Shown: positions 17,385 through 47,512 of the stretch, piece by piece
Numbering within the stretch: position 1 is the first letter of the stretch
Layout of the letters: every line of letters begins with the position of its first letter
NCBI GenBank assembly: GCA_044341565.1
Contig: JBIIRM010000008.1
Coordinates: 1-47,688, forward strand
DNA length: 47,688 nucleotides
Direction of reading: 5' to 3'
DNA from: Minisyncoccia bacterium
GTDB lineage: Bacteria; Patescibacteriota; Minisyncoccia; SW-4-49-11
The notes under the pieces: model-generated
Told to the model about the DNA's origin: nothing
The model's database searches: none
What the model saw: the letters and a program-made list of their open reading frames with translations, nothing else
Made by a program: the position numbers and the translations under genes

Positions 17385-17453
17385 ATGGGATATTAGTTCT
17401 ACAGACAAAAACTATAGCATAAAATAGCAGTTTTGTCAATTTCTGATATTATT

Positions 17454-17956
17454 TTTCCACCCCTTTCCCTGCTACCCCTCAATTTATCTCCCGTAGGGAG
17501 AGAGGGGAATTAGCTAAGTCCACACCCGTCGACTTTGTCGACACCCTCGCCGGCGAGGCCTGCCTGCGGTAGGCAGGGACAGTTTTATTGTCCTCCCTTG
17601 GGGGAGCTTTGGTTCCTCCTATATTTGTTTAGGAGGGGGTGCCCGTAATAGACTGAAGGTCTGGGAAAGGGGTCGGGAAAACAGAAGTTTTCCCGTGGAG
17701 GAAGGTTGGGAAACCGTGAGGTTTCACAGGAGCAAATCCCATTTGCGACGGGGGAGGGAGGATAGAGTTTAAGTTTGTATTTTATCCACCCCGTCCAGCA
17801 AAGCTGTCCACCCCTCAAGAGGGGAATATATACAATGTACTGTCCTAAAAATTCCCCTCATGGGTTGTGAGTAGATAGGAGTCAGTATATAACAAAGTGC
17901 TTTGTCCGAAAAATTCCCCTCTTGAGGGGTGCCGTCGCTAGACGGCGGGGTGGAAA
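17454..17956 (+). repeat. G+C-rich mosaic stem-loop cassette, copy A (the largest), bounded by a 10-nt inverted repeat
   Basis: TTTCCACCCC (17454-17463) and GGGGTGGAAA (17947-17956). At least 11 short perfect GC-rich hairpins are present. The backbone is shared with 38577-38778, 42131-42206 and 47131-47305. Confidence 0.85.
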
Positions 17957-17959
17957 GTA

Positions 17960-31408: not shown

Positions 31409-32730
31409 AATATATAAAGTTCAGTATAGTTTTTGGTATAATATTCTTAGTAGTTTCATTTTTTAGTATTAACTATACTAATGCACAGAGTGCAGATGGA
31501 GCTTGTAGTGCAGGGGCAACATCATTAGAGCAAAACTGTACTTTTCAAAATGGAAGCTCTCGTTTAAATGGAAAATGCCAGGTTAAAGATAAAAATAATC
31601 CAGGTTTAGGATTAACTTGTCGTACTAGCTTAGGATCATCCTGCTCAGGTGATACTTGTCAAAATGGATTAGCCTGTATTAATCAGGTTTGTTCCAGTCC
31701 AAGAGGGGCTAAAACTCAAGGTCAATCTTGTTCAGGGAATGGAAATGAATGTATTGCAGGTCTTGAATGTAGAAATTTTATATGTACAAAAGAAGCTGCC
31801 ATTACTGGTGGAGGGTCTGGGCAAACTGGAGGTGGTCAAGTCGGTACCCCTGGAGGCTCAACAGGGGCAGAAACAGGCCTTGTTAAATGTGGAGTGAGTC
31901 GAGATTGTACTATTTGTGATATATTTATCTTAATTCGAGATATCTTTAATTTTGCTTTAGGGCTACTAGCCTCACTCGCGGTATTAAGTGTTGTTATTGG
32001 TGGGGTCTATGTGTTGACTTCAGCAGGTAATCCTGGAGCGGTAAGTACAGGATATGGCATTATTACCAATGCAGTAATTGGACTATTACTCGTAATGGCA
32101 AGCTTTCTCTTATTTAGTTTCCTTCTTGTGGGGCTTGGATTTCAAGAACAAAATTTCTCAGCTGTACTTACTTTTCAACCAGGTAAAGTATTCGAGGTAA
32201 AATGTGATAATGCTAGTACTTTTAATGATAATGGATCAAATGGAGGAGGGTCTGCTGTACTGGGTAATGGTGGGAGTAACTCATCAACTATAAGTTGTGC
32301 GAGTTTAAATGATTCGGTTAAGGCGGATTTAAATAATGCTAGTTCTCAGACGGGTGTTCCTTCTGAACTATTGGCTGGAATTATGCAAAGAGAATGTCCT
32401 GCAGCCTTTAATAATGCTAATGCTTGTCCAAATGAAAATGGCTCTGGAGCAGCTGGAGCAGGTCAATTTTTACAAAGTAGCTGGAATGAGCTGGGATGTA
32501 GTGGAAGTAGAACGAATCGAAGAGATGCCCTTGTTTGTATGGGGAAACATTTAAAACGGTATAATAAATGTTCTAGTCAATGTAATGGATATTCTAATTT
32601 TTCATCCAGAGCTTGTTCTGATTGTGTGGCAGGAGATTATTGTGGTGCATGTTCAGGTTCATCAGCTTGTGGAGGTAATTATTGTGATGGGGTGTGGAGT
32701 AACTATCAAAAATTTAAAACATGTAAATAA
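31405..32730 (+). CDS. secreted Cys-rich domain, T4SS-pilin-like TM hairpin and C-terminal Cys-rich lytic-transglycosylase-like domain (fusion)
   Basis: Signal peptide MKYIKFSIVFGIIFLVVSFFSINYTNA. Cys-rich repeats follow the pattern C.G..C..GL.C.N..C. The pilin core is FNFALGLLASLAVLSVVIGGVYVLTSAGNPGAVSTGYGIITNAVIGLLLVMASFLLF (about 31897-32155). The SLT-like motifs are ELLAGIMQRECP...GAAGAGQFLQSSW (about 32302-32730). The ATG overlaps the SBP stop (ATGA). Confidence 0.7.
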   Translation: MKYIKFSIVFGIIFLVVSFFSINYTNAQSADGACSAGATSLEQNCTFQNGSSRLNGKCQVKDKNNPGLGLTCRTSLGSSCSGDTCQNGLACINQVCSSPRGAKTQGQSCSGNGNECIAGLECRNFICTKEAAITGGGSGQTGGGQVGTPGGSTGAETGLVKCGVSRDCTICDIFILIRDIFNFALGLLASLAVLSVVIGGVYVLTSAGNPGAVSTGYGIITNAVIGLLLVMASFLLFSFLLVGLGFQEQNFSAVLTFQPGKVFEVKCDNASTFNDNGSNGGGSAVLGNGGSNSSTISCASLNDSVKADLNNASSQTGVPSELLAGIMQRECPAAFNNANACPNENGSGAAGAGQFLQSSWNELGCSGSRTNRRDALVCMGKHLKRYNKCSSQCNGYSNFSSRACSDCVAGDYCGACSGSSACGGNYCDGVWSNYQKFKTCK

Positions 32731-32734
32731 TAAT

Positions 32735-33841
32735 ATGAATAAAATCTTCAGTCTATTTTTACTAATAGCATCTTTCTATTCTATTTCTCCAGTATATGCA
32801 GATACTAGTATATACTCAAGTTTCTTATATCCAAGTTTTGCTGTAAATAATGAAATTTTATATTTTGATCAATATGCAGGAGCTATTGTGAAACAAAATG
32901 TTATTACTGGTGAGAAGTCAGAGATATTTGATTTAATACCTTCTGCTACTAACTTAGTATCAATTTCTCCTGAACAATCTAAAATATTACTTTATCCTCC
33001 TAATATATCATTTCCAAAATATCAAGCACCATTTTTTGATAGTTCAAGAAAATCTCCCGATAATCAATGGTGGGTATATGATTTTAATACAACAAATAAA
33101 ATACTACTAGATGATAAAATTAATTTAGTTGGCTGGTATTCTGATAATGAAATTATATATGTATTTAATAATAAAGATATCACAGTTGCCCCAACCAATG
33201 ACCTATCTAAATTTAATATTCTATACTCTAATATACCATCTAATGTGGATATTAATAAACAAATTATAGCAAATGATAACCATCAAATAATTCCATTAGT
33301 TGATGGTTATCTTGTGGGAAATAAGAAAAACTTTGTATATCAAAAAAGTACTAATTATCAAATTTCAGCCAATCCAAAATTGAATTATTTTTTGGAATAT
33401 AATAATAGTCAGATAAAAGTTTTTGATTGGGATAGTAAGCAAGTAGGTAGTATTATTAATATCAGTAACAGGAAAGCTTTGTTACTGAATAATGATACTA
33501 TAGCTATATTGGCTACAAATGGTAATTTGATACAATATAATTTACAAGGGCAGGAGCAATCAAATGTATCATTAAATCCAATAGTTACTGATATATATTC
33601 GGTTGATCAATCTGGAAATGAACTATTAATTAATCAAAATAATCAAATACGTACTTATAATTTATTAAAAAAAGAGCAGGGAACCATCCTATTATCCACC
33701 AATACTCCTACTCCTAATACTGACACAAATTCAGAGACAGAACAATCCAACACATTAGGGAATATTGCTATTTTAATAGGAGGAATAGTATTCCTTGCTG
33801 GGGGACTGGGGCTATTTATTTGGAAATTAAGAAAAAGATGA
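32735..33841 (+). CDS. secreted beta-propeller-like protein with a C-terminal TM anchor
   Basis: The true start ATG 32735 gives the signal peptide MNKIFSLFLLIASFYSISPVYA. The body is Asn/Ile-rich and beta-strand-like with PD40/TolB-like strings (ISPEQSKILLY, WWVYDFNT). The C-terminal anchor is IAILIGGIVFLAGGLGLFIWKLRKR. Confidence 0.6.
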   Translation: MNKIFSLFLLIASFYSISPVYADTSIYSSFLYPSFAVNNEILYFDQYAGAIVKQNVITGEKSEIFDLIPSATNLVSISPEQSKILLYPPNISFPKYQAPFFDSSRKSPDNQWWVYDFNTTNKILLDDKINLVGWYSDNEIIYVFNNKDITVAPTNDLSKFNILYSNIPSNVDINKQIIANDNHQIIPLVDGYLVGNKKNFVYQKSTNYQISANPKLNYFLEYNNSQIKVFDWDSKQVGSIINISNRKALLLNNDTIAILATNGNLIQYNLQGQEQSNVSLNPIVTDIYSVDQSGNELLINQNNQIRTYNLLKKEQGTILLSTNTPTPNTDTNSETEQSNTLGNIAILIGGIVFLAGGLGLFIWKLRKR

Positions 33842-33871
33842 TATAATTAAAAATAATTAAATACAGATACT

Positions 33872-34711
33872 ATGAAATTAATCATATCTACAGCATTTGG
33901 AATTGTCTTTGCACTAGTATTCTTTAGTAATTCTAATATAACACTTGCTCAATGTGGAAGTGGTCCAAGCTGTACAGGGAATTTTGTTTGTGTGAACGCA
34001 GATGGTACTCCTAAATGTTTGCTAAATCAGGTTAGTAATAATGGTTTATGTGAGGGCGACTCTTCTGTGAAATGTTCAGCAAATCAAGCTTGTATTCAAA
34101 ATAATGCAACAGAAATTGTATGTGCCCCTTTAGCGGGATCATCAGCTAATACAAATTTACCAGGTTCTGGAAGTACAACAACTTGTCCAACCTGTAAATC
34201 TGGTGAAACATGTATTAAGAGTGCAGCAGGACCACTCGTATGTAGATCCGCCGCTACAAATTGTACTCCTGCTTGTACAACAGGTAAGGTGTGTGTTAAA
34301 GCAACGCCAACAGCAACTACTGGAACTTGTGTAGATAATGCGCCTACTCAAGCTGCTGGAGGAGCTGGTGGTAATGGTGCTGGAGGGAATGGATCTTCAG
34401 GAGGAAGTGGTGGTGGCTTATTAGAAGGTCTCAATGCTTTTGGTAGTGCAGATTCTGGACTTAATACAGAGGGAACTCTCATTGGGTTTATTTCTAATAT
34501 TATTCGTTGGATATTAGGACTTCTTGGAACTGTGTTCTTTGTAATCATAGTTTTACAAGGGTATCTTTATATGACATCTTCAGGAGATGCGAGTAAAACA
34601 GCAGCAGCTACGGGGGCTATTACTAATGCAGTAATAGGACTACTGATTATTATGGGAGCTTTCCTCATTACTAATTTTGTGACAAGTGGTTTGATTGCCG
34701 CTGGGTCTTAA
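33872..34711 (+). CDS. T4SS-pilin-like protein, paralogue 1, with a long Cys-rich N-terminal extension and Gly-rich linker
   Basis: Signal peptide MKLIISTAFGIVFALVFFSNSNITLA, then about 20 Cys in C..G..C-type repeats and the linker AGGAGGNGAGGNGSSGGSGGG. The pilin core is IIRWILGLLGTVFFVIIVLQGYLYMTSSGDASKTAAATGAITNAVIGLLIIMGAFLITNF. Confidence 0.8.
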   Translation: MKLIISTAFGIVFALVFFSNSNITLAQCGSGPSCTGNFVCVNADGTPKCLLNQVSNNGLCEGDSSVKCSANQACIQNNATEIVCAPLAGSSANTNLPGSGSTTTCPTCKSGETCIKSAAGPLVCRSAATNCTPACTTGKVCVKATPTATTGTCVDNAPTQAAGGAGGNGAGGNGSSGGSGGGLLEGLNAFGSADSGLNTEGTLIGFISNIIRWILGLLGTVFFVIIVLQGYLYMTSSGDASKTAAATGAITNAVIGLLIIMGAFLITNFVTSGLIAAGS

Positions 34712-34721
34712 TATCTTATAT

Positions 34722-35069
34722 ATGATAGAAGCATTTATATCCAATTTCATCATAGTAACAGCTAAAGCCCAGGAGACATCGCCTCCTCCTATATTAGCTA
34801 TACCTACAGGAACAGGAGTGGGGGAGCAAGGAGATCTGTTTACTTTTGTGTCAGCTATTGTGCAATGGGGATTGGGATTAATAGGGATAGTATTATTTGT
34901 ACTTATACTCTTTTCTGGATTCCAATATGCAACAGCAGGGGGCGACTCTAAAAAAACTGAAGAAGCTATTAGTAGAATTACTTCTGCAGTAATCGGAGTA
35001 TTCATTGTAGGGGTGGCTTTTATACTATCCAATGCAGTATTAGGATTTGTTTTTAGTCTAGGATCTTAA
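34722..35069 (+). CDS. T4SS-pilin-like protein (TrbC/VirB2-type two-TM hairpin), paralogue 2
   Basis: The core is IVQWGLGLIGIVLFVLILFSGFQYATAGGDSKKTEEAISRITSAVIGVFIVGVAFILSNAVLGFVF. The start is trimmed to ATG 34722, after the upstream stop at 34711. Confidence 0.8.
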   Translation: MIEAFISNFIIVTAKAQETSPPPILAIPTGTGVGEQGDLFTFVSAIVQWGLGLIGIVLFVLILFSGFQYATAGGDSKKTEEAISRITSAVIGVFIVGVAFILSNAVLGFVFSLGS

Positions 35070-35097
35070 TATACTGACTTATCCACAATAGTATCAC

Positions 35098-35126
35098 TTG
35101 CATAGTAATATAAGATATGATAGTAT
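35098..35126 (+). promoter_or_regulatory. candidate promoter for pilin paralogue 3
   Basis: TTGCAT (35098-35103), a 17-nt spacer, then TAGTAT (35121-35126) in the 100-bp A+T-rich spacer. Confidence 0.25.
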
Positions 35127-35169
35127 AAAAACATAGAACATATTATTCAATAATTATTAAGATATTCTT

Positions 35170-35553
35170 ATGAATACTTCCCAGATAAAATCAATAGCAA
35201 CAAGAGCATTATTACCTGTATTAGTATTAGCTCCTACTTTAGCTGGAGCTGCAACTCCCATAAAAGATACTAGAGTCATAGGTGAAATACCTCAAGTAGC
35301 TGGTACTAATCAATCTACTGACCTTGTGGCTACAGTACAAGTGGTTATTCAATGGGCATTAGGATTTATCGGAATTGTAATATTCATTATTTTCTTATTT
35401 GCAGGATTTGAATATGCAACAGCAGGAGGAGATGAAGGAAAAGCAAAAACTGCACAGTCTCGAATGATTAACGCGGTAATTGGACTTATTATTATATTCT
35501 TTGCCTTTGTAGCTTCAAATGCAATATTGTCATTCGTATTCCCAGGAAATTAA
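35170..35553 (+). CDS. T4SS-pilin-like protein, paralogue 3
   Basis: Signal-like N-terminus ...LVLAPTLAGAATP. The core is VIQWALGFIGIVIFIIFLFAGFEYATAGGDEGKAKTAQSRMINAVIGLIIIFFAFVASNAILSFVFP. Confidence 0.85.
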   Translation: MNTSQIKSIATRALLPVLVLAPTLAGAATPIKDTRVIGEIPQVAGTNQSTDLVATVQVVIQWALGFIGIVIFIIFLFAGFEYATAGGDEGKAKTAQSRMINAVIGLIIIFFAFVASNAILSFVFPGN

Positions 35554-35573
35554 TCAAATTGATAGATACTATG

Positions 35574-35610
35574 AAACAATAAAAAGGGATTATATCCCTT
35601 TTTATTGTTT
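35574..35610 (+). terminator. rho-independent terminator-like hairpin after pilin paralogue 3
   Basis: AAACAATAAAAAGGGAT-tat-ATCCCTTTTTATTGTTT is a 17-bp perfect stem whose 3' arm carries a T-run. Confidence 0.65.
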
Positions 35611-35697
35611 AGAGAATACATATTCAAATAGTATAATCTTCTTGTCAGATAATAGAATACTTGATATACTTGTAATATATAGAATAGTAAAATAGAT

Positions 35698-36114
35698 ATG
35701 AGAGTCTTATTGATTATAATAGCTTTATTGATGGGGGTATTTGTATTAAGTTCTAATATATCTCTAGCTCAAAGAGCCCCTGATGCCACTCTCCCTGGTC
35801 CAGGAACAATCCCAATTAATACCGGAATAGCTGAGGGACCAAGCTTGATAGAAACAGTGTCTATTATTATAAGGTGGATATTAGGATTTATTGGAATTAT
35901 AATATTTATTATATTCCTATATGCAGGATTTGAATATGCAACAGCAGGAGGGGATGAGAAGCAGGCTGAATCAGCTCAAAAAAGAATGGTAAATGCAATC
36001 ATAGGACTGATTATTATATTCTTTGCATTTGTATTGTCGAATGCAGTATTAAGCTTTGTATTTCCTCCAGACGATACAGTAGATGATCCTAATATGCCAT
36101 TAAATGTAAATTAG
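35698..36114 (+). CDS. T4SS-pilin-like protein, paralogue 4
   Basis: Signal peptide MRVLLIIIALLMGVFVLSSNISLA. The core is IIRWILGFIGIIIFIIFLYAGFEYATAGGDEKQAESAQKRMVNAIIGLIIIFFAFVLSNAVLSFVFP. Confidence 0.85.
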   Translation: MRVLLIIIALLMGVFVLSSNISLAQRAPDATLPGPGTIPINTGIAEGPSLIETVSIIIRWILGFIGIIIFIIFLYAGFEYATAGGDEKQAESAQKRMVNAIIGLIIIFFAFVLSNAVLSFVFPPDDTVDDPNMPLNVN

Positions 36115-36115
36115 T

Positions 36116-36556
36116 ATGAAATATCTATCAATAGTAATAATTGCAATAATGATACTAATGAGTAATCCTTTTATTAGCTTTGCAGGTACCCCATCAGGGG
36201 GAGGAACTACTCCAGCTACGGGTGGTACTCCATCAGGGGGAGGAACTACTCCAGCTACGGGTGGTACTCCCACAACCCCAACTGACAATACTTCTGCTCA
36301 AAGTGTAGGATTTGTGAATCCAATTCGATTTAATTCTATCCCTGAGCTTATAGCAGGTATTATCAATGCTCTCTTGGGTATACTCGGAGCTATTACTGTG
36401 GCAATATTAGTGATGTCAGGATTTAAATATATGACAGCTTCTAATCCAGGAGCAGTAGGGCAAGCTTTAGATGGTATTAGGAATGCAATTGTAGGACTTA
36501 TGATTATTATGGGGGCTTTTCTCATCACACAATATATTATATCTGCTTTGGTGTAA
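36116..36556 (+). CDS. T4SS-pilin-like protein, paralogue 5, with a tandem Thr/Pro/Gly repeat
   Basis: Signal-like MKYLSIVIIAIMILMSNPFISFA, then (GTPSGGGTTPATG)x2. The core is IINALLGILGAITVAILVMSGFKYMTASNPGAVGQALDGIRNAIVGLMIIMGAFLITQY. Confidence 0.85.
   Translation: MKYLSIVIIAIMILMSNPFISFAGTPSGGGTTPATGGTPSGGGTTPATGGTPTTPTDNTSAQSVGFVNPIRFNSIPELIAGIINALLGILGAITVAILVMSGFKYMTASNPGAVGQALDGIRNAIVGLMIIMGAFLITQYIISALV
36185..36262 (+). repeat. two tandem copies of a 39-bp coding repeat
   Basis: GGTACCCCATCAGGGGGAGGAACTACTCCAGCTACGGGT (36185-36223) is repeated at 36224-36262 with 2 substitutions. Each copy encodes GTPSGGGTTPATG, and a partial third unit (GTPTTPT) follows. Confidence 0.9.
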
Positions 36557-36574
36557 ATATTAGATAAAGAAAAA

Positions 36575-36612: not shown

Positions 36613-37323
36613 TCAGCGAGCTTGTATCACTGGGTATCCAGATTGCCCACCTGGCATCTTCTGGTAATATTCATAATCATTATTAACATCTGCTCCGATA
36701 TTAAATTTCCTTTTAATATCGGGAGTATATTGTTTACCAAATACTCCTAGGGATATTTTGATCCTTTTCCCAGAAAGTGATGAAGGTAAATCGTGGCATT
36801 TAGCGTAAGGCTCAATAACCCTCCAATTGTCACCAATGGTAACCTCTTGATTTATCCAGTGTTTCTCTGGATGGCCAGTCTGTTTGAAGCAGACCTTGAG
36901 AGGTCGTGCTGGGAGATCATACTCACCATCACGATTGATCACGATGGGAGTCATTTCCCCGGGGGGATTGAGTTGTGCCTGCCTTGCACTATGTATGCTC
37001 TGGTTGAAGTTAGCTGAGCAATAGTTCAAGAGGAGAATTACTCCAATCACAGTAGCAGCAAACCTGAGCTTGCTATTGAGTACCGCTGCAATTATAGTAA
37101 TGGCCATCAAAAAGAATATCTCACCATCAGAAATACTTCCTCCGATGAGAATCATTTTGGCCCCCAACCAAAGACCAGCCAAACTAATCAGTAAAACTGA
37201 CCAGTTCAGTCCGCGAGCTTTACTCCACAAATTCCCAGAACTTGCCGGAGATGGGGAGGAGTTTGTGGATGATGAGGTGTTTGAGCCTCTAGATCCACGG
37301 GACCCGTATTGACGATTTGTCAT
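36613..37323 (-). CDS. hypothetical membrane protein: Ser-rich N-terminus, 3 TM segments and a soluble domain of about 120 aa
   Basis: MTNRQYGSRGSRGSNTSSSTNSSPSPASS, then TM segments (WSVLLISLAGLWLGAKMILIGG, IFFLMAITIIAAVL, FAATVIGVILLLNY). It is visibly more G+C-rich than neighbouring genes. I recognise no family. Confidence 0.65.
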   Translation of the reverse strand: MTNRQYGSRGSRGSNTSSSTNSSPSPASSGNLWSKARGLNWSVLLISLAGLWLGAKMILIGGSISDGEIFFLMAITIIAAVLNSKLRFAATVIGVILLLNYCSANFNQSIHSARQAQLNPPGEMTPIVINRDGEYDLPARPLKVCFKQTGHPEKHWINQEVTIGDNWRVIEPYAKCHDLPSSLSGKRIKISLGVFGKQYTPDIKRKFNIGADVNNDYEYYQKMPGGQSGYPVIQAR

Positions 37324-37395
37324 GATAAAATGAACGAATTACTTTCTATATATAGCATATTTTAGGTAAAATGTCAATATTTATAGACAATAAAA

Positions 37396-37418
37396 AAGCC
37401 GTGACATTGTCACGGCTT
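37396..37418 (-). terminator. rho-independent terminator of the SPFH gene
   Basis: AAGCCGTGAC-att-GTCACGGCTT is a 10-bp stem. On the minus strand it is followed by TTTTTTATT, and it lies 17 nt after the stop at 37435. Confidence 0.8.
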
Positions 37419-37434
37419 GGTAATATGCTGCTGA

Positions 37435-38460
37435 TCAGTCTTTGGAAGCTTCGAGAGCTCCCAGGACTTGATTTGCTATATCTTGCCCTTTACCCCCTCC
37501 ATGGAAAATAACTTTGGCATTGGTACCAAGAGTTTTTTCCAAAATAGGATATTGGGCGAGTTTAGCAAAAAGCTGTTGCTCTGAGATATCAGAGCCCATT
37601 GCTCCAGCTTTAATTGCAGCTGTGAATCCTTTGGTTTCAGCCAATAGATTCTCATTCTGTTGCTTAATAACCAGACCACGGGCTGTCTCGCGATCGAGAT
37701 CAGCTTTTTGCTCAGCTTTTGCTATGGCAGATTTATTCTTGGCATCATTGACCTCGGACGGTAACTCTAAATCATCTATATTTATTGCAGATAGCTCAAT
37801 ACCAATATTATCTAGTTTCTTCAGAATGGTCTTACCAAGAGCAAGAGCTTCAATATCCTCTGTAGTATCCATACCCTTAATACGAGATCCATCTTGCTCC
37901 AGACCAAGAGCTTGAAGTAATTGATCAGGAGTCATTGTAGATATTTGAATATCCTGAACCTCTTTACCCGCAGCTATATGCTTGGAGTATTCTTGATAGG
38001 TATGTTGTTGCAGTACTAGACGAATATAAGGGTTCAAGATGCGTTCAGTTGCCTGACGTTCATCCTGATCCTCTGCATTATAGTGCAAGTTATAAACATG
38101 CTTTATTTTTTCCTGCAGAGTATTTCCTTTAATTTGAGCAATTACGCTAACTCTTGCTTCTAGAGTAACATCAGCCAATTCTAATTTGGCAAAGTCATCA
38201 GTACTAGGAGCATCAGATCTATCCTGAGGGGCTACTTTTCTAGGCCCGTCATGTCTAAAAAGATAGACAGGAAACTGGTTGGTTTCATACCATCCAGCTA
38301 ATTTTGATCCCGGTACAATCAGATGAGGTCCCGGAGTAGCAATTTTGGAAAGAATTCCACTCCCATTATGATTTGGACGGCTTCCTAACCATGAAATCAC
38401 ATGAACTTCATCATCAGGTACAATCCAGATAGGGGGGATAAAGAAAGAATCAAAGGCCAT
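37435..38460 (-). CDS. SPFH/Band-7 (prohibitin/flotillin-like) domain protein without an N-terminal TM segment
   Basis: IWIVPDDEVHVISWLG...GPHLIVPGSKL, then IGIELSAINIDDLELPSEVNDAKNKSAIAKAEQKADLDRETA, matches the SPFH core and the following Ala/Glu-rich helix. G+C is visibly higher than the surroundings. Confidence 0.7.
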   Translation of the reverse strand: MAFDSFFIPPIWIVPDDEVHVISWLGSRPNHNGSGILSKIATPGPHLIVPGSKLAGWYETNQFPVYLFRHDGPRKVAPQDRSDAPSTDDFAKLELADVTLEARVSVIAQIKGNTLQEKIKHVYNLHYNAEDQDERQATERILNPYIRLVLQQHTYQEYSKHIAAGKEVQDIQISTMTPDQLLQALGLEQDGSRIKGMDTTEDIEALALGKTILKKLDNIGIELSAINIDDLELPSEVNDAKNKSAIAKAEQKADLDRETARGLVIKQQNENLLAETKGFTAAIKAGAMGSDISEQQLFAKLAQYPILEKTLGTNAKVIFHGGGKGQDIANQVLGALEASKD

Positions 38461-38576
38461 TTTGTGAATGAACGAGGGACTTCTTATTCATAACACAAAA
38501 TCATAAATTTGTCAACTCATAATAACAGGTGTATATACATAAAATTATTCCGACTCAGGTCAATGAGTACTTATAA

Positions 38577-38778
38577 TGTCCTCCCTTGGGGGAGGTGGGG
38601 AAAGGGGTCGGGAAAACGAGAGGTTTCACAGGAGCAAATTTTATTTGCGACGGAGGAGGATAATTCAAAAAGTCCACACCCACCGCTAACGCGGTACCCC
38701 CTCGCCAGCGAGTGACAGATTTAATATCCTCCCCCGGGGGAGGATAAAATAGTACAGGCGACTGAAAGGTCGCCCCTA
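38577..38778 (+). repeat. G+C-rich mosaic stem-loop cassette, copy B
   Basis: A 17-nt run GTCCTCCCTTGGGGGAG (38577-38593) is identical to 17590-17606. GGGAAAGGGGTCGGGAAAAC, GAGCAAAT-ttt-ATTTGCGACG (38631-38651) and AAGTCCACACCC (38669-38680) are all shared with copy A. A 22-nt perfect palindrome lies at 38724-38745. Confidence 0.85.
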
Positions 38779-38821
38779 CAAAATTGATAATTCACAACTA
38801 TTACTTCATCTCAACCTTGTA

Positions 38822-38850
38822 TTGACAAATAGCACTATATATACTACAAT
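38822..38850 (+). promoter_or_regulatory. candidate sigma70-type promoter of the rpsL-rpsG-fusA operon
   Basis: TTGACA (38822-38827), a 17-nt spacer, then TACAAT (38845-38850), 81 nt upstream of the rpsL ATG. Confidence 0.5.
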
Positions 38851-38931
38851 AGAACAAGTTCCCAAAAGAGGTGTGCTTTTGAGTGTCTTTAGGTGTAAAG
38901 ATGCTCACCCCGCTAATTATAATTATTATTT

Positions 38932-39345
38932 ATGCCTACTATACAACAATTAGTACGAAAAGGTCGTAAGACCGGAGTAAAGAAAACCAAGTCCCCAGCA
39001 TTGGCTAGAACTTTTAATGTTCTCAAAAACAAGCCTATGGAGAGTAATTCTCCTTTCAAAAGAGGAGTATGTGTGAAAGTTACTACTACCACTCCAAAAA
39101 AACCTAACTCAGCTTTACGTAAAATTGCAAGAGTTCGATTATCTAATGGACAAGAAGTTACTGCGTATATTCCAGGAATGGGACATAATCTTCAAGAGCA
39201 TTCAGTAGTAATGCTAAGAGGAGGGCGAGTAAAAGATTTGCCTGGAGTACGATATCATATTGTTCGAGGAGTATTAGATACTGCTGGAGTAGATGGACGA
39301 TCTCAAGAGCGAAGTAAATATGGGGTAAAAAAGCCGAAGAAATAA
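38932..39345 (+). CDS. rpsL: 30S ribosomal protein S12
   Basis: [13 protein letters not shown]...[10 protein letters not shown]...[18 protein letters not shown]. Confidence 0.98.
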
Positions 39346-42099: not shown

Positions 42100-42130
42100 G
42101 GTATATACTCACTATAGGTAATCCTCCTCC

Positions 42131-42206
42131 GTTCCTCCTATATATAATAGGAGGAACACCTCCCCCCAAGGGAGGACAGAAATTTTGTCCCTCGCCAGCG
42201 AGGGAC
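42131..42206 (-). repeat. G+C-rich mosaic stem-loop cassette, copy C (condensed, inverted relative to copy A)
   Basis: GTTCCTCCT-n9-AGGAGGAAC (42131-42157). CTCCCCCCAAGGGAGGACAGAAATTTTGTCCC (42160-42191) matches the reverse complement of 17576-17606 with one extra C and a changed loop. GTCCCTCGC-ca-GCGAGGGAC lies at 42187-42206. Confidence 0.8.
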
Positions 42207-42253
42207 AATAATACGTTTATGCTATACTGTAAGTATTACTATAATTATCCTTT

Positions 42254-46308: not shown

Positions 46309-46563
46309 TCAGTCAGGCTCATAGAATGCACTGGAGTAGGGGAGGGCTTCAGTAAGGTTGAATGCCTCTTTTCGAGACATGGAGTTCAATTGCCGTGTGC
46401 GACAACAGCTACAGAATCTTCCATTTTGTTCGAATACCCGCACTTCTCCATGAACTCGAATGTGGATATCTGCGCCTACCCAGCGTGAGACTTGATTTGT
46501 GCAATTAGGCGTTGCACATGGGGCATTGAGTACATAATCAAGAATCCGATCAAGAAATGACAT
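46309..46563 (-). CDS. small (84 aa) Cys-containing hypothetical protein, relatively G+C-rich
   Basis: MSFLDRILDYVLNAPCATPNCTNQV...GRFCSCCRTRQLN carries CxxxxC plus CxCC, a possible metal site. It has its own terminator. I recognise no family. Confidence 0.5.
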   Translation of the reverse strand: MSFLDRILDYVLNAPCATPNCTNQVSRWVGADIHIRVHGEVRVFEQNGRFCSCCRTRQLNSMSRKEAFNLTEALPYSSAFYEPD

Positions 46564-46635
46564 GACAGAAAGTCGAGTTTACAAAAATAACCATACCATA
46601 TTTTTGCAAAAATGTCAATATGTATAAACAATTTA

Positions 46636-46974: not shown

Positions 46975-47060
46975 GGAGAGTTCGCATAGTTGGTCTAGTG
47001 CGCACGCTTGGAAAGCGTGTATACCGCAAGGTATCAAGAGTTCGAATCTCTTACTCTCCG
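46975..47060 (+). tRNA. tRNA-Ser (anticodon GGA), class II with a long variable arm
   Basis: Acceptor GGAGAGT/ACTCTCC plus discriminator G. D-arm GCA/TGC with a GG loop. Anticodon stem CACGC/GCGTG with loop TTGGAAA. Variable arm ATACC-gcaa-GGTAT. T-arm AAGAG-TTCGAAT-CTCTT. No CCA is encoded. Confidence 0.93.
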
Positions 47061-47063
47061 CAA

Positions 47064-47101
47064 AAATTAAAAATAGGGGTTTTTGCCCCTATTTTTAATT
47101 T
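47064..47101 (+). terminator. long hairpin terminator after tRNA-Ser
   Basis: AAATTAAAAATAGGGG-tttttg-CCCCTATTTTTAATTT is a 16-bp perfect stem. Confidence 0.7.
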
Positions 47102-47130
47102 CCGTGAGTTAGTAAAGAGAAATTCGAACT

Positions 47131-47305
47131 CGGGAAGGGGTCGGGAAACGGAAGTTTCCTGTGGCGGAAGTAATCAATACCCCTAGATAGGAAGGCAATG
47201 AGGAGCTTGCTCCGAATGTCGGAAACCGTGGGTGTCCGAGATGGGGTTGTAGGGGTATTGAGGGAACTGAGGGGGTTTCAAAGAGCAAATCCCATTTGCG
47301 ACGAG
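47131..47305 (+). repeat. G+C-rich mosaic stem-loop cassette, copy D
   Basis: CGGGAAGGGGTCGGGAAACGGAAGTTTCCTGTGGCGGAAG (47131-47170) is colinear with 17662-17704. GGAAACCGTGGGTGTCC is present. The 21-nt core GAGCAAATCCCATTTGCGACG (47283-47303) is identical to 17730-17750. More hairpins follow up to about 47413. Confidence 0.85.
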
Positions 47306-47325
47306 TTCGGAATCTCTTACTATCT
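47303..47325 (+). repeat. degenerate direct repeat of the tRNA-Ser 3' end (att-like)
   Basis: GAGTTCGGAATCTCTTACTATCT compared with GAGTTCGAATCTCTTACTCTCC in the tRNA (47038-47059): one inserted G and two substitutions near the 3' end. Confidence 0.75.
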
Positions 47326-47512
47326 ATATTCCGACACTCGGGAATAAATCCCTCGCTGCCTTCCTGCACGGGGGATTTTGCCTTCATACATACGATGTAT
47401 GAAATCCTGAAGGAGTTATTTAGATTCAAACTTCATTTTTAATTGGACTAAATAAATTTTAGTTGGTATTCTATTTATTAGGTGGTATATCAGTTAATCT
47501 AAAAATAATTTT

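Follow-up and report, generated by a model that had tools for sequence, protein, structure and literature searches.

The window, by which we mean the whole 47,688-nucleotide stretch of DNA that was analyzed, is bacterial and has a G+C content of 35%. Its genes include those of a bacterial RNase P, rpsL-rpsG-fusA and an arrayed set of T4SS pilins, and it matches contigs of Parcubacteria/Paceibacteria MAGs at 91-94% identity; the RNase P, the pilin genes and the CPR MAG matches speak against an organelle or chloroplast origin. The pilin array (32000-36560) is made up of paralogous genes with C-terminal segments in common (families D1, D3 and D7), and at 36185-36262 a 39-nt segment coding for Gly/Thr/Pro-rich sequence is duplicated perfectly in tandem. 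Copy B, the island of hairpins studied here, occupies the spacer that separates a Band_7 gene (37435-38460, - strand) from rpsL (38932, + strand), the gene of ribosomal protein S12. Its G+C content is 54%, as against 29-31% in its immediate flanks.

A 40-nt A+T-rich sequence occurs at 37352-37391 and again, 85% identical, at 46593-46632, upstream of two high-G+C ORFs on the - strand (36613-37323, 236 aa; 46309-46563, 84 aa). Neither ORF has a Pfam match, and the region of the 84-aa ORF is missing from L042, a 94%-identical contig. The segment next to island B that holds the 236-aa ORF and the Band_7 gene (36690-38455, 40-41% G+C) has no DNA-level alignment with the orthologous locus L059; both flanks align, at 79-91%, and the segment looks like a replaced or fast-evolving one.

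The original prediction described two copies, A and B, of a hairpin cassette. The window holds four islands, with G+C contents of 49-54%:

17440-17958, + strand: island A, with block 2 (17518-17582), the S hairpin (17590-17606), two extra hairpins, an intact core (17663-17758) and further hairpin modules.
38578-38780, + strand: island B (copy B), about 200 bases long, upstream of rpsL.
42105-42208, - strand: island D, with the S and TTCCTCC hairpins reversed, plus a CCCTCGCCAGCGAGGG hairpin.
47100-47325, + strand: island C, in which the core (53 bits) takes a tRNA-linked form, behind tRNA-Ser(GGA) (46975-47061) and its terminator.

The motifs quoted for copy B in the prediction are all present; every coordinate given for B was 1 base too low, the true position lying 1 base to the right, and those given for A were exact. 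The observation on copy B is real, and A and B share modules far above chance, with module counts of 3-5 in the window as compared to 0.02-0.17 expected from shuffles of the window. Local BLAST bears out the permuted, two-block colinearity of the two copies: A 17695-17757 aligns with B 38595-38659 (83% over 65 nt, E = 9e-12), A 17583-17606 with B 38571-38594 (92%), and A 17497-17606 with B 38652-38742 (68-71%). The fold of B is much more stable than that of its shuffles, with z = -5.7 on the + strand and z = -3.6 on the - strand. Independent assemblies of two other metagenomes (L001 and L002) contain an identical B sequence, and B is therefore not an assembly artefact. In L001, otherwise 98.6-100% identical to the window, the first ~70 nt of rpsL are swapped for unrelated sequence (1270-1320, vs window 38925-39000) and the gene call is 102 aa long, which reflects either an assembly chimera or a strain variant.

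Copy B can be read module by module:

38578-38594, + strand: S hairpin GTCCTCCCTTGGGGGAG, that is GTCCTCCC-TTGG-GGGAG, which with 38649-38662 provides the two arms of the core-enclosing S-ext hairpin.
38598-38648, + strand: damaged core, with GGGAAAGGGGTC, a chimeric H1/H2 hairpin (GGGAAAAC-GAGA-GGTTTCAC) and H3 (GCAAAT-TTT-ATTTGC); 33 nt are missing.
38649-38662, + strand: 3' arm of S-ext, GACGGAGGAGGATA, pairing with TGTCCTCC at 38577-38584.
38672-38720, + strand: block 2 module, with GTCCACACCC, the variable hairpin ACCGC-TAAC-GCGGT (38682-38695), ACCCC, CTCGCC-A-GCGAG and then GACAG.
38725-38746, + strand: S', a perfect 22-nt palindrome (TATCCTCCCCC/GGGGGAGGATA), the inverted-repeat partner of S.
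38754-38780, + strand: terminal module ACAGGCGAC-TGAAAG-GTCGCCCCTAC, adjoining the rpsL promoter, with the hairpin GGCGAC-tgaaag-GTCGCC at 38757-38774.

An undamaged core is a 96-nt unit that runs GGGAAAGGGGTC, H1 (CGGGAAAAC-loop-GTTTTCCCG), TGGAGGAAGG, H2, GGA, H3 (GCAAAT-loop-ATTTGC) and GACGG, its three hairpins being joined by the invariant purine-rich linkers GGGAAAGGGGTC, TGGAGGAAGG and GACGG. Under a covariance model of the core, B scores 49.5 bits, its ortholog L059 117.4 and copy A 122.4. What had been taken for two hairpin insertions in A (H1/H2) is instead a 33-nt deletion in B: L059 retains both hairpins, and in the alignment of the two loci the loss falls between GGGAAA(A)C repeats. 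The GGCGAC-tgaaag-GTCGCC hairpin, likewise, is not the positional counterpart of A's AGAC-tgaag-GTCT, as had been proposed, and belongs to a separate conserved terminal module (ACAGGCGAC-loop-GTCGCCCCTAC) found also in L009, L011, L130, L133 and L134; in L011, L130, L133 and L134/L136 it sits at the same place as in B. S and S' form 19-nt inverted repeats around 130 nt, i.e., most of B, and S' can close the whole island by pairing with S. Both palindromes also occur alone, and island ends differ among copies.

The original prediction combined two ideas, that hairpins are kept despite sequence change and that B is a discrete cassette transcribed from a TATAAT immediately 5' of its first module. 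The former stands, as the covariation data below show. The latter does not: the TATAAT at 38572-38577 of the window reads TTGTACT in L059, and a promoter scan found no -35 for it and no promoter in B, so that an own promoter at this site was rejected. The likely rpsL promoter is a strong match, TTGACA-17-TACAAT, found downstream of B at 38822-38850. Copy B probably sits between this and a divergent - strand promoter of the Band_7 gene, the latter by our own reading of the sequence.

A look-up with the S12 protein returned nine more orthologous spacers besides that of L059, and eleven close relatives, L059 among them, are 94-98% identical to the window over rpsL-rpsG-fusA. Despite this similarity, the rpsL spacer is highly variable. 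No island is present in L131, L132, L135 and L137; L130 has S plus the terminal module only; L138 has the S-ext hairpin with the core absent; and L133 and L134/L136 hold other mosaics. The core is absent from all nine look-up spacers and occurs at B's site only in L059 and the window, where it exactly replaces TCGCTGAAGGT of the loop of the S-ext hairpin, a hairpin that stands without the core at the same site in L138 and L130. In the more distant L011, whose flanks are 85% identical, the spacer is likewise occupied by an island that ends in this terminal module, its core being inverted relative to rpsL, and L033 has an island at A's site after fmt with its core inverted relative to fmt. Island D is missing from the orthologous fusA-mgsA spacer of L011. 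Comparison with empty sites revealed no clear target-site duplication at the borders of B or D. Since the corresponding spacers of close relatives are empty of islands, minimally occupied or filled with other mosaics, B does not qualify as a conserved RNA gene or leader. A role as rpsL leader or Band_7 regulator was rejected on the same absence in close relatives and on the position of B upstream of the rpsL promoter.

The two core orientations seen at orthologous sites of different genomes, together with the 19-nt inverted repeats S and S' around 130 nt of B, raise the idea that S-type inverted palindromes make the core a recombinase-flipped invertible switch (inverton) regulating rpsL, Band_7 or other neighbors. 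We consider this very improbable. The invertible segment has no promoter, no invertase gene lies nearby, and the independent assemblies of this strain all show one orientation; the inversions that are seen are between species and are accompanied by other rearrangements.

The islands belong to a previously undescribed family of non-coding, G+C-rich hairpin repeats in the intergenic spacers of Paceibacteria (CPR). They are mosaics of about a dozen short hairpin modules, with the 96-nt core as one larger recurring unit, and the modules around the core (S, block 2, terminal module) recur in varying order and orientation. When one genome per species was scanned for the 21-nt motif of H3, 72 loci were obtained, ~55 of them in a dozen Paceibacteria/Parcubacteria MAGs and at least 17 in one genome, the per-genome copy numbers being lower bounds from 8-kb samples. 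The covariance model found 118 copies in 0.68 Mb. Full-length core copies lie nearly all between ORF calls; the few inside ORFs are mostly in ORFs made by the repeat itself. The original view that the islands are not under selection as protein is in line with these data, and nothing here is protein-coding: the core consensus has in-frame stops, and ORFs over the repeats cluster solely among themselves. At the gathering threshold no Rfam 15 family matches the islands, and relaxed searches (E<=10 for A, B and C; E<=1 for six tRNA-linked loci) gave only sub-threshold, chance-level matches to unrelated families. A literature search found no paper linking CPR with MITE or REP and no match for the motif strings. 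Other sources were rejected in turn: derivation from RNase P or some further host RNA (the RNase P RNA encoded in the window is rich in A+T and bears no relation to the islands), a group II intron (sole match E=7) and a phage (three scans of viral contigs gave one chance match and otherwise nothing).

Stem changes in the larger alignments are compensatory, as the original prediction anticipated. In twelve copies, the variable hairpin of block 2, between GTCCACACCC and ACCCTCGCC, has four stem alleles (GTCGAC/GTCGAC, GGCAC/GTGCC, GTCAC/GTGAC and ACCGC/GCGGT), all of which pair; these stems were read by eye, the MAFFT alignment having lost the hairpin register. Besides B, the block 2 module with its compensatory stem alleles was found in 12 other copies. 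Across 112 distinct copies of the core, 95.5% of cells are paired and 22 of the 23 pairs show double-sided changes (110 cells), in an alignment that was fitted to the model and hence leans towards the structure. None of 500 shuffles reached this level, and sliding the partners by 1-3 columns gave 17-39 cells. All three hairpins covary, and two H1 pairs show the path G:C to G:T to A:T. Among wobble pairs G:T outnumber A:C by 49 to 23, which identifies the G-rich strand as the folding strand; the folded strand fits RNA or single-stranded DNA. Stems and linkers of the core are conserved in sequence as well, its loops are often of the GNRA type, and its single-stranded linkers are invariant. Cores are ~95% identical between genomes whose flanking genes are 70-85% identical, which also fits purifying selection on a functional RNA.

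These features suggest an alternative in which the core, perhaps even whole islands, works as a structured RNA from the G-rich strand, either a 3'-UTR/intercistronic stabilizer or terminator or a multicopy trans-acting sRNA, with B as a dead copy. Covariation in all three hairpins, the excess of G:U over A:C, the GNRA-type loops with their invariant linkers and the near-identity of cores across species are all expected of such an RNA. Location adds to this, as 23 of 32 core copies lie downstream of a co-directional gene, cores between co-directional genes are sense in 13 cases and antisense in 3, and tRNA-linked units (below) are followed by intrinsic terminators. We nonetheless regard this alternative as unlikely. 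A conserved promoter was not found, copy A is antisense to both of its neighbor genes and B is flanked by divergent promoters, cores at orthologous sites differ in orientation, and presence varies among near-identical strains. The core is moreover nested in other repeats, its stems are conserved in sequence beyond what structure alone would call for, and Rfam has no match to it. If the core is a functional RNA after all, it is a widespread unannotated family.

The same data bear on whether the islands serve the host as DNA, be it as sites for nucleoid or topology proteins (cf. IHF and gyrase at BIMEs), as cruciform insulators or as replication or recombination signals. Placement is strictly intergenic, often between convergent or divergent genes; the invariant blocks could be protein sites, and perfect palindromes are able to extrude as cruciforms. 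Against these points, close relatives have no island in the same spacer, module content at a given site is not conserved, strand-asymmetric wobble pairs are unexpected for double-stranded recognition, and there is no known candidate binding protein. A host DNA role is accordingly quite improbable in our estimation.

Copy B belongs to a new family of mosaic repeats, as a member that has decayed and been rearranged, and is not a transcribed cassette. As to what maintains the family, we favor, with a probability of about 0.62, the reading that B is one island of non-autonomous, hairpin-dependent, selfish mosaic repeats that are reshuffled by recombination between their own palindromes. Islands are gained, lost and reshuffled much faster than flanking genes change, and the modules each remain foldable, preferentially in the G-rich strand. 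Modules have been gained and lost, insertions have been nested in the loops of hairpins, sequence between short direct repeats has dropped out (B's 33 nt), and segments between palindromic modules have been inverted or permuted. Palindromic S modules act as direct and inverted repeats at once, and recombination between two S copies can delete, invert or permute the interval. Since such exchange can produce all three outcomes, it would also explain better why A and B look like different windows on a tandem unit, as had been proposed; the block permutation behind that proposal is seen, and at B's site relatives differ by inversions and by exchanged modules. Spread would require hairpins in a single strand and a hypothetical mover, an enzyme acting in trans; host recombination and replication slippage would otherwise rearrange the islands. 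We infer that copy B itself is a decaying relic whose effects on its neighbors are at most incidental.

No transposase, integrase or HUH enzyme adjoins any copy in the sampled loci, and one serine recombinase lies 0.5 kb from a unit in L109. Recurrent neighbors (MazF/PemK, RhuM, NYN, glycosyltransferases and a shikimate-dehydrogenase-like ORF) include no recombinase apart from that of L109, and an autonomous partner among them was rejected. In the Paceibacteria loci L038 (2733-3936), L015, L036 and L061, islands alternate with MazF/PemK toxins, RhuM and NYN in a superficially cassette-like manner.

A metagenome scan anchored on the unpaired linkers recovered dispersed Paceibacteria copies and ~14 units in other, often G+C-richer, contigs. 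One of the latter contigs has a DUF1559/N-methyl neighbor, which we take to be typical of Planctomycetota, making it a probable planctomycete. In these units and in copy C, a tRNA or tmRNA gene precedes the core at a distance of 13-130 nt, in most cases with a terminator in between (window 46975-47430; L014, L025, L029, L042, L043, L072, L078, L079, L086, L087, L093, L104, L109-L111 and L118). The 18 tRNA/tmRNA-element pairs cover 14 tRNA identities, called by ARAGORN, plus tmRNA. Most pairs have an inverted copy of 9-20 nt of the neighboring tRNA 3' end just 5' of the core, and the unit ends in a direct copy of the tRNA 3' end, mostly of 12-18 nt starting in the T-loop, with a few degraded to 6-9 nt; a tRNA-Gln unit has a 35-nt direct copy starting from the anticodon loop. 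In island C these arms, taken from the 3' end of tRNA-Ser(GGA), are ATTCGAACTC (5', inverted) and GAATCTCTTACT (3', direct). Complementarity of the 5' arm to the neighboring tRNA (T-loop, T-stem and acceptor strand) reaches 20/20 and is often better than its match to the element's own 3' arm. Units are stacked in tandem in L043, L025 and L078, and several tRNAs of one genome may carry them, e.g., all three tRNA-Ser loci sampled in JBIKWJ. Contigs with tRNA-linked units have canonical tmRNA genes elsewhere. Copy C was rejected as a tmRNA or tRNA-like gene on the presence of such a canonical gene, on the failure of ARAGORN and Rfam to call it, and on its having no tag ORF. No integrase occurs within or beside the tRNA-linked units, and the unit was not found in the viral contigs scanned.

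Some further loci show related arrangements. Unit E1 of L043 has the same arm architecture with a different core. A further module (ttccgacactcgggaataaatccctcgctgccttcctgcacggggg...) follows copy C at 47326-47430 and recurs behind tRNA-Ser(GCT) in L029 (3900-4050); it includes the reverse complement of part of a long insert in copy C and L072. Six Micrarchaeota (DPANN) loci (L035, L045, L051, L053, L067 and L071) match the 21-nt H3 pattern, the match mostly beginning inside the tRNA 3' end (...GGGTTCAAATCCCGAGGGGAGCA, then AAT...) and being followed by a partial T-arm repeat; these may be chance matches or a distant tRNA-linked relative.

This architecture suggests that the core arose as a miniature integrative element of 110-250 nt. 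On the mechanism favored above, the core would descend from an element of that size integrating behind tRNA/tmRNA genes and duplicating the tRNA 3' end. Sublocation classes of integration at tRNA genes have reportedly been distinguished (Williams, 2002), and the direct repeats match the product of site-specific integration into tRNA genes. The inverted arm beside a conserved folded core is left unexplained by this model, and it is for this reason that the 5' arm can be read as a guide, or else as one half of a folded attachment site resembling the double-stranded end of the tRNA gene. The core would then be an undescribed structured RNA or folded single-stranded DNA of a gene-less 110-250 nt element able to insert behind practically every tRNA or tmRNA gene, with structure- or RNA-directed targeting that in Paceibacteria was retargeted from T-arms to S-type hairpins, seeding the mosaic repeats. 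We put this forward as a doubtful proposal.

CPR/Patescibacteria genomes are regarded as streamlined and repeat-poor, and a family of prolific, fast-evolving, structured repeats would change this picture. It would account for contig breaks in CPR assemblies (L002 stops exactly at B's edge), and the islands are usable as strain-level markers. Through the core, the CPR repeats are tied to a gene-less element that follows tRNA/tmRNA genes in several phyla and whose arms match the tRNA in each case; if self-targeting, this element would represent a new way for mobile DNA to pick its site.

Several known systems share part of this description. The REP/BIME sequences of enterobacteria and pseudomonads are short, G+C-rich imperfect palindromes that are intergenic, often transcribed as 3' UTRs, and variable between strains. 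Like the islands, they are many-copy extragenic palindromes in mosaics of variable order, number and orientation. They differ in their GT(A/G)G head, whereas on inspection island modules begin GTCC, ACAGGC or CCCTCG and have no GTAG-type head. Island modules are also more diverse, include one 96-nt three-hairpin unit, and share that core with tRNA-linked units in other phyla. No RAYT transposase was identified, and there is no transposase among the recurrent neighbors at the sampled loci. BOX (boxA-boxB(n)-boxC) and ERIC, for which no mobilizing enzyme is known, resemble the islands in being intergenic, structure-forming and modular, and in gaining or losing entire modules at set positions within the repeat; the islands have many more module types, nesting in hairpin loops and inversion-mediating palindromes, with no known sequence relationship. 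In contrast to MITEs, the islands have no clear target-site duplication and no IS adjoining the copies.

Integron attC sites recombine as folded single strands, and their structure is conserved more than their sequence. Some CPR copies are attC-like in flanking small accessory genes (MazF/PemK, RhuM, NYN). The islands differ in having no RYYYAAC/GTTRRRY core sites and no IntI, and the copies in the window flank the housekeeping genes rpsL, fusA, fmt and tRNA-Ser; integron cassettes were rejected on the absence of attC core sites. Yeast mitochondrial GC clusters are G+C-rich hairpin clusters of an A+T-rich organelle genome. The 'repetitive hairpin-forming elements' of sponge organelles (PMC2800124) are G+C-rich hairpins that invade the spacers of a compact, A+T-rich genome. 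These organelle clusters share with the islands their families and their nested insertions in the spacers of A+T-rich compact genomes, and unlike the islands they lack a conserved core of several hairpins and are not linked to tRNA 3' ends.

A further parallel is offered by the integrative elements that occupy tRNA/tmRNA genes and by CIMEs, their derivatives that lack an integrase (cf. PMC5704250 and PMC6323972). Copy C and the tRNA-linked units resemble CIMEs in lying at a tRNA 3' end with a direct repeat from the T-loop or anticodon loop, in tandem stacking, in having no integrase and in leaving the tRNA intact. Unlike CIMEs, the units measure 110-250 nt, carry no cargo genes, repeat the tRNA 3' end once more in inverted form beside a conserved structured core, and place one and the same core behind at least 14 different tRNAs.
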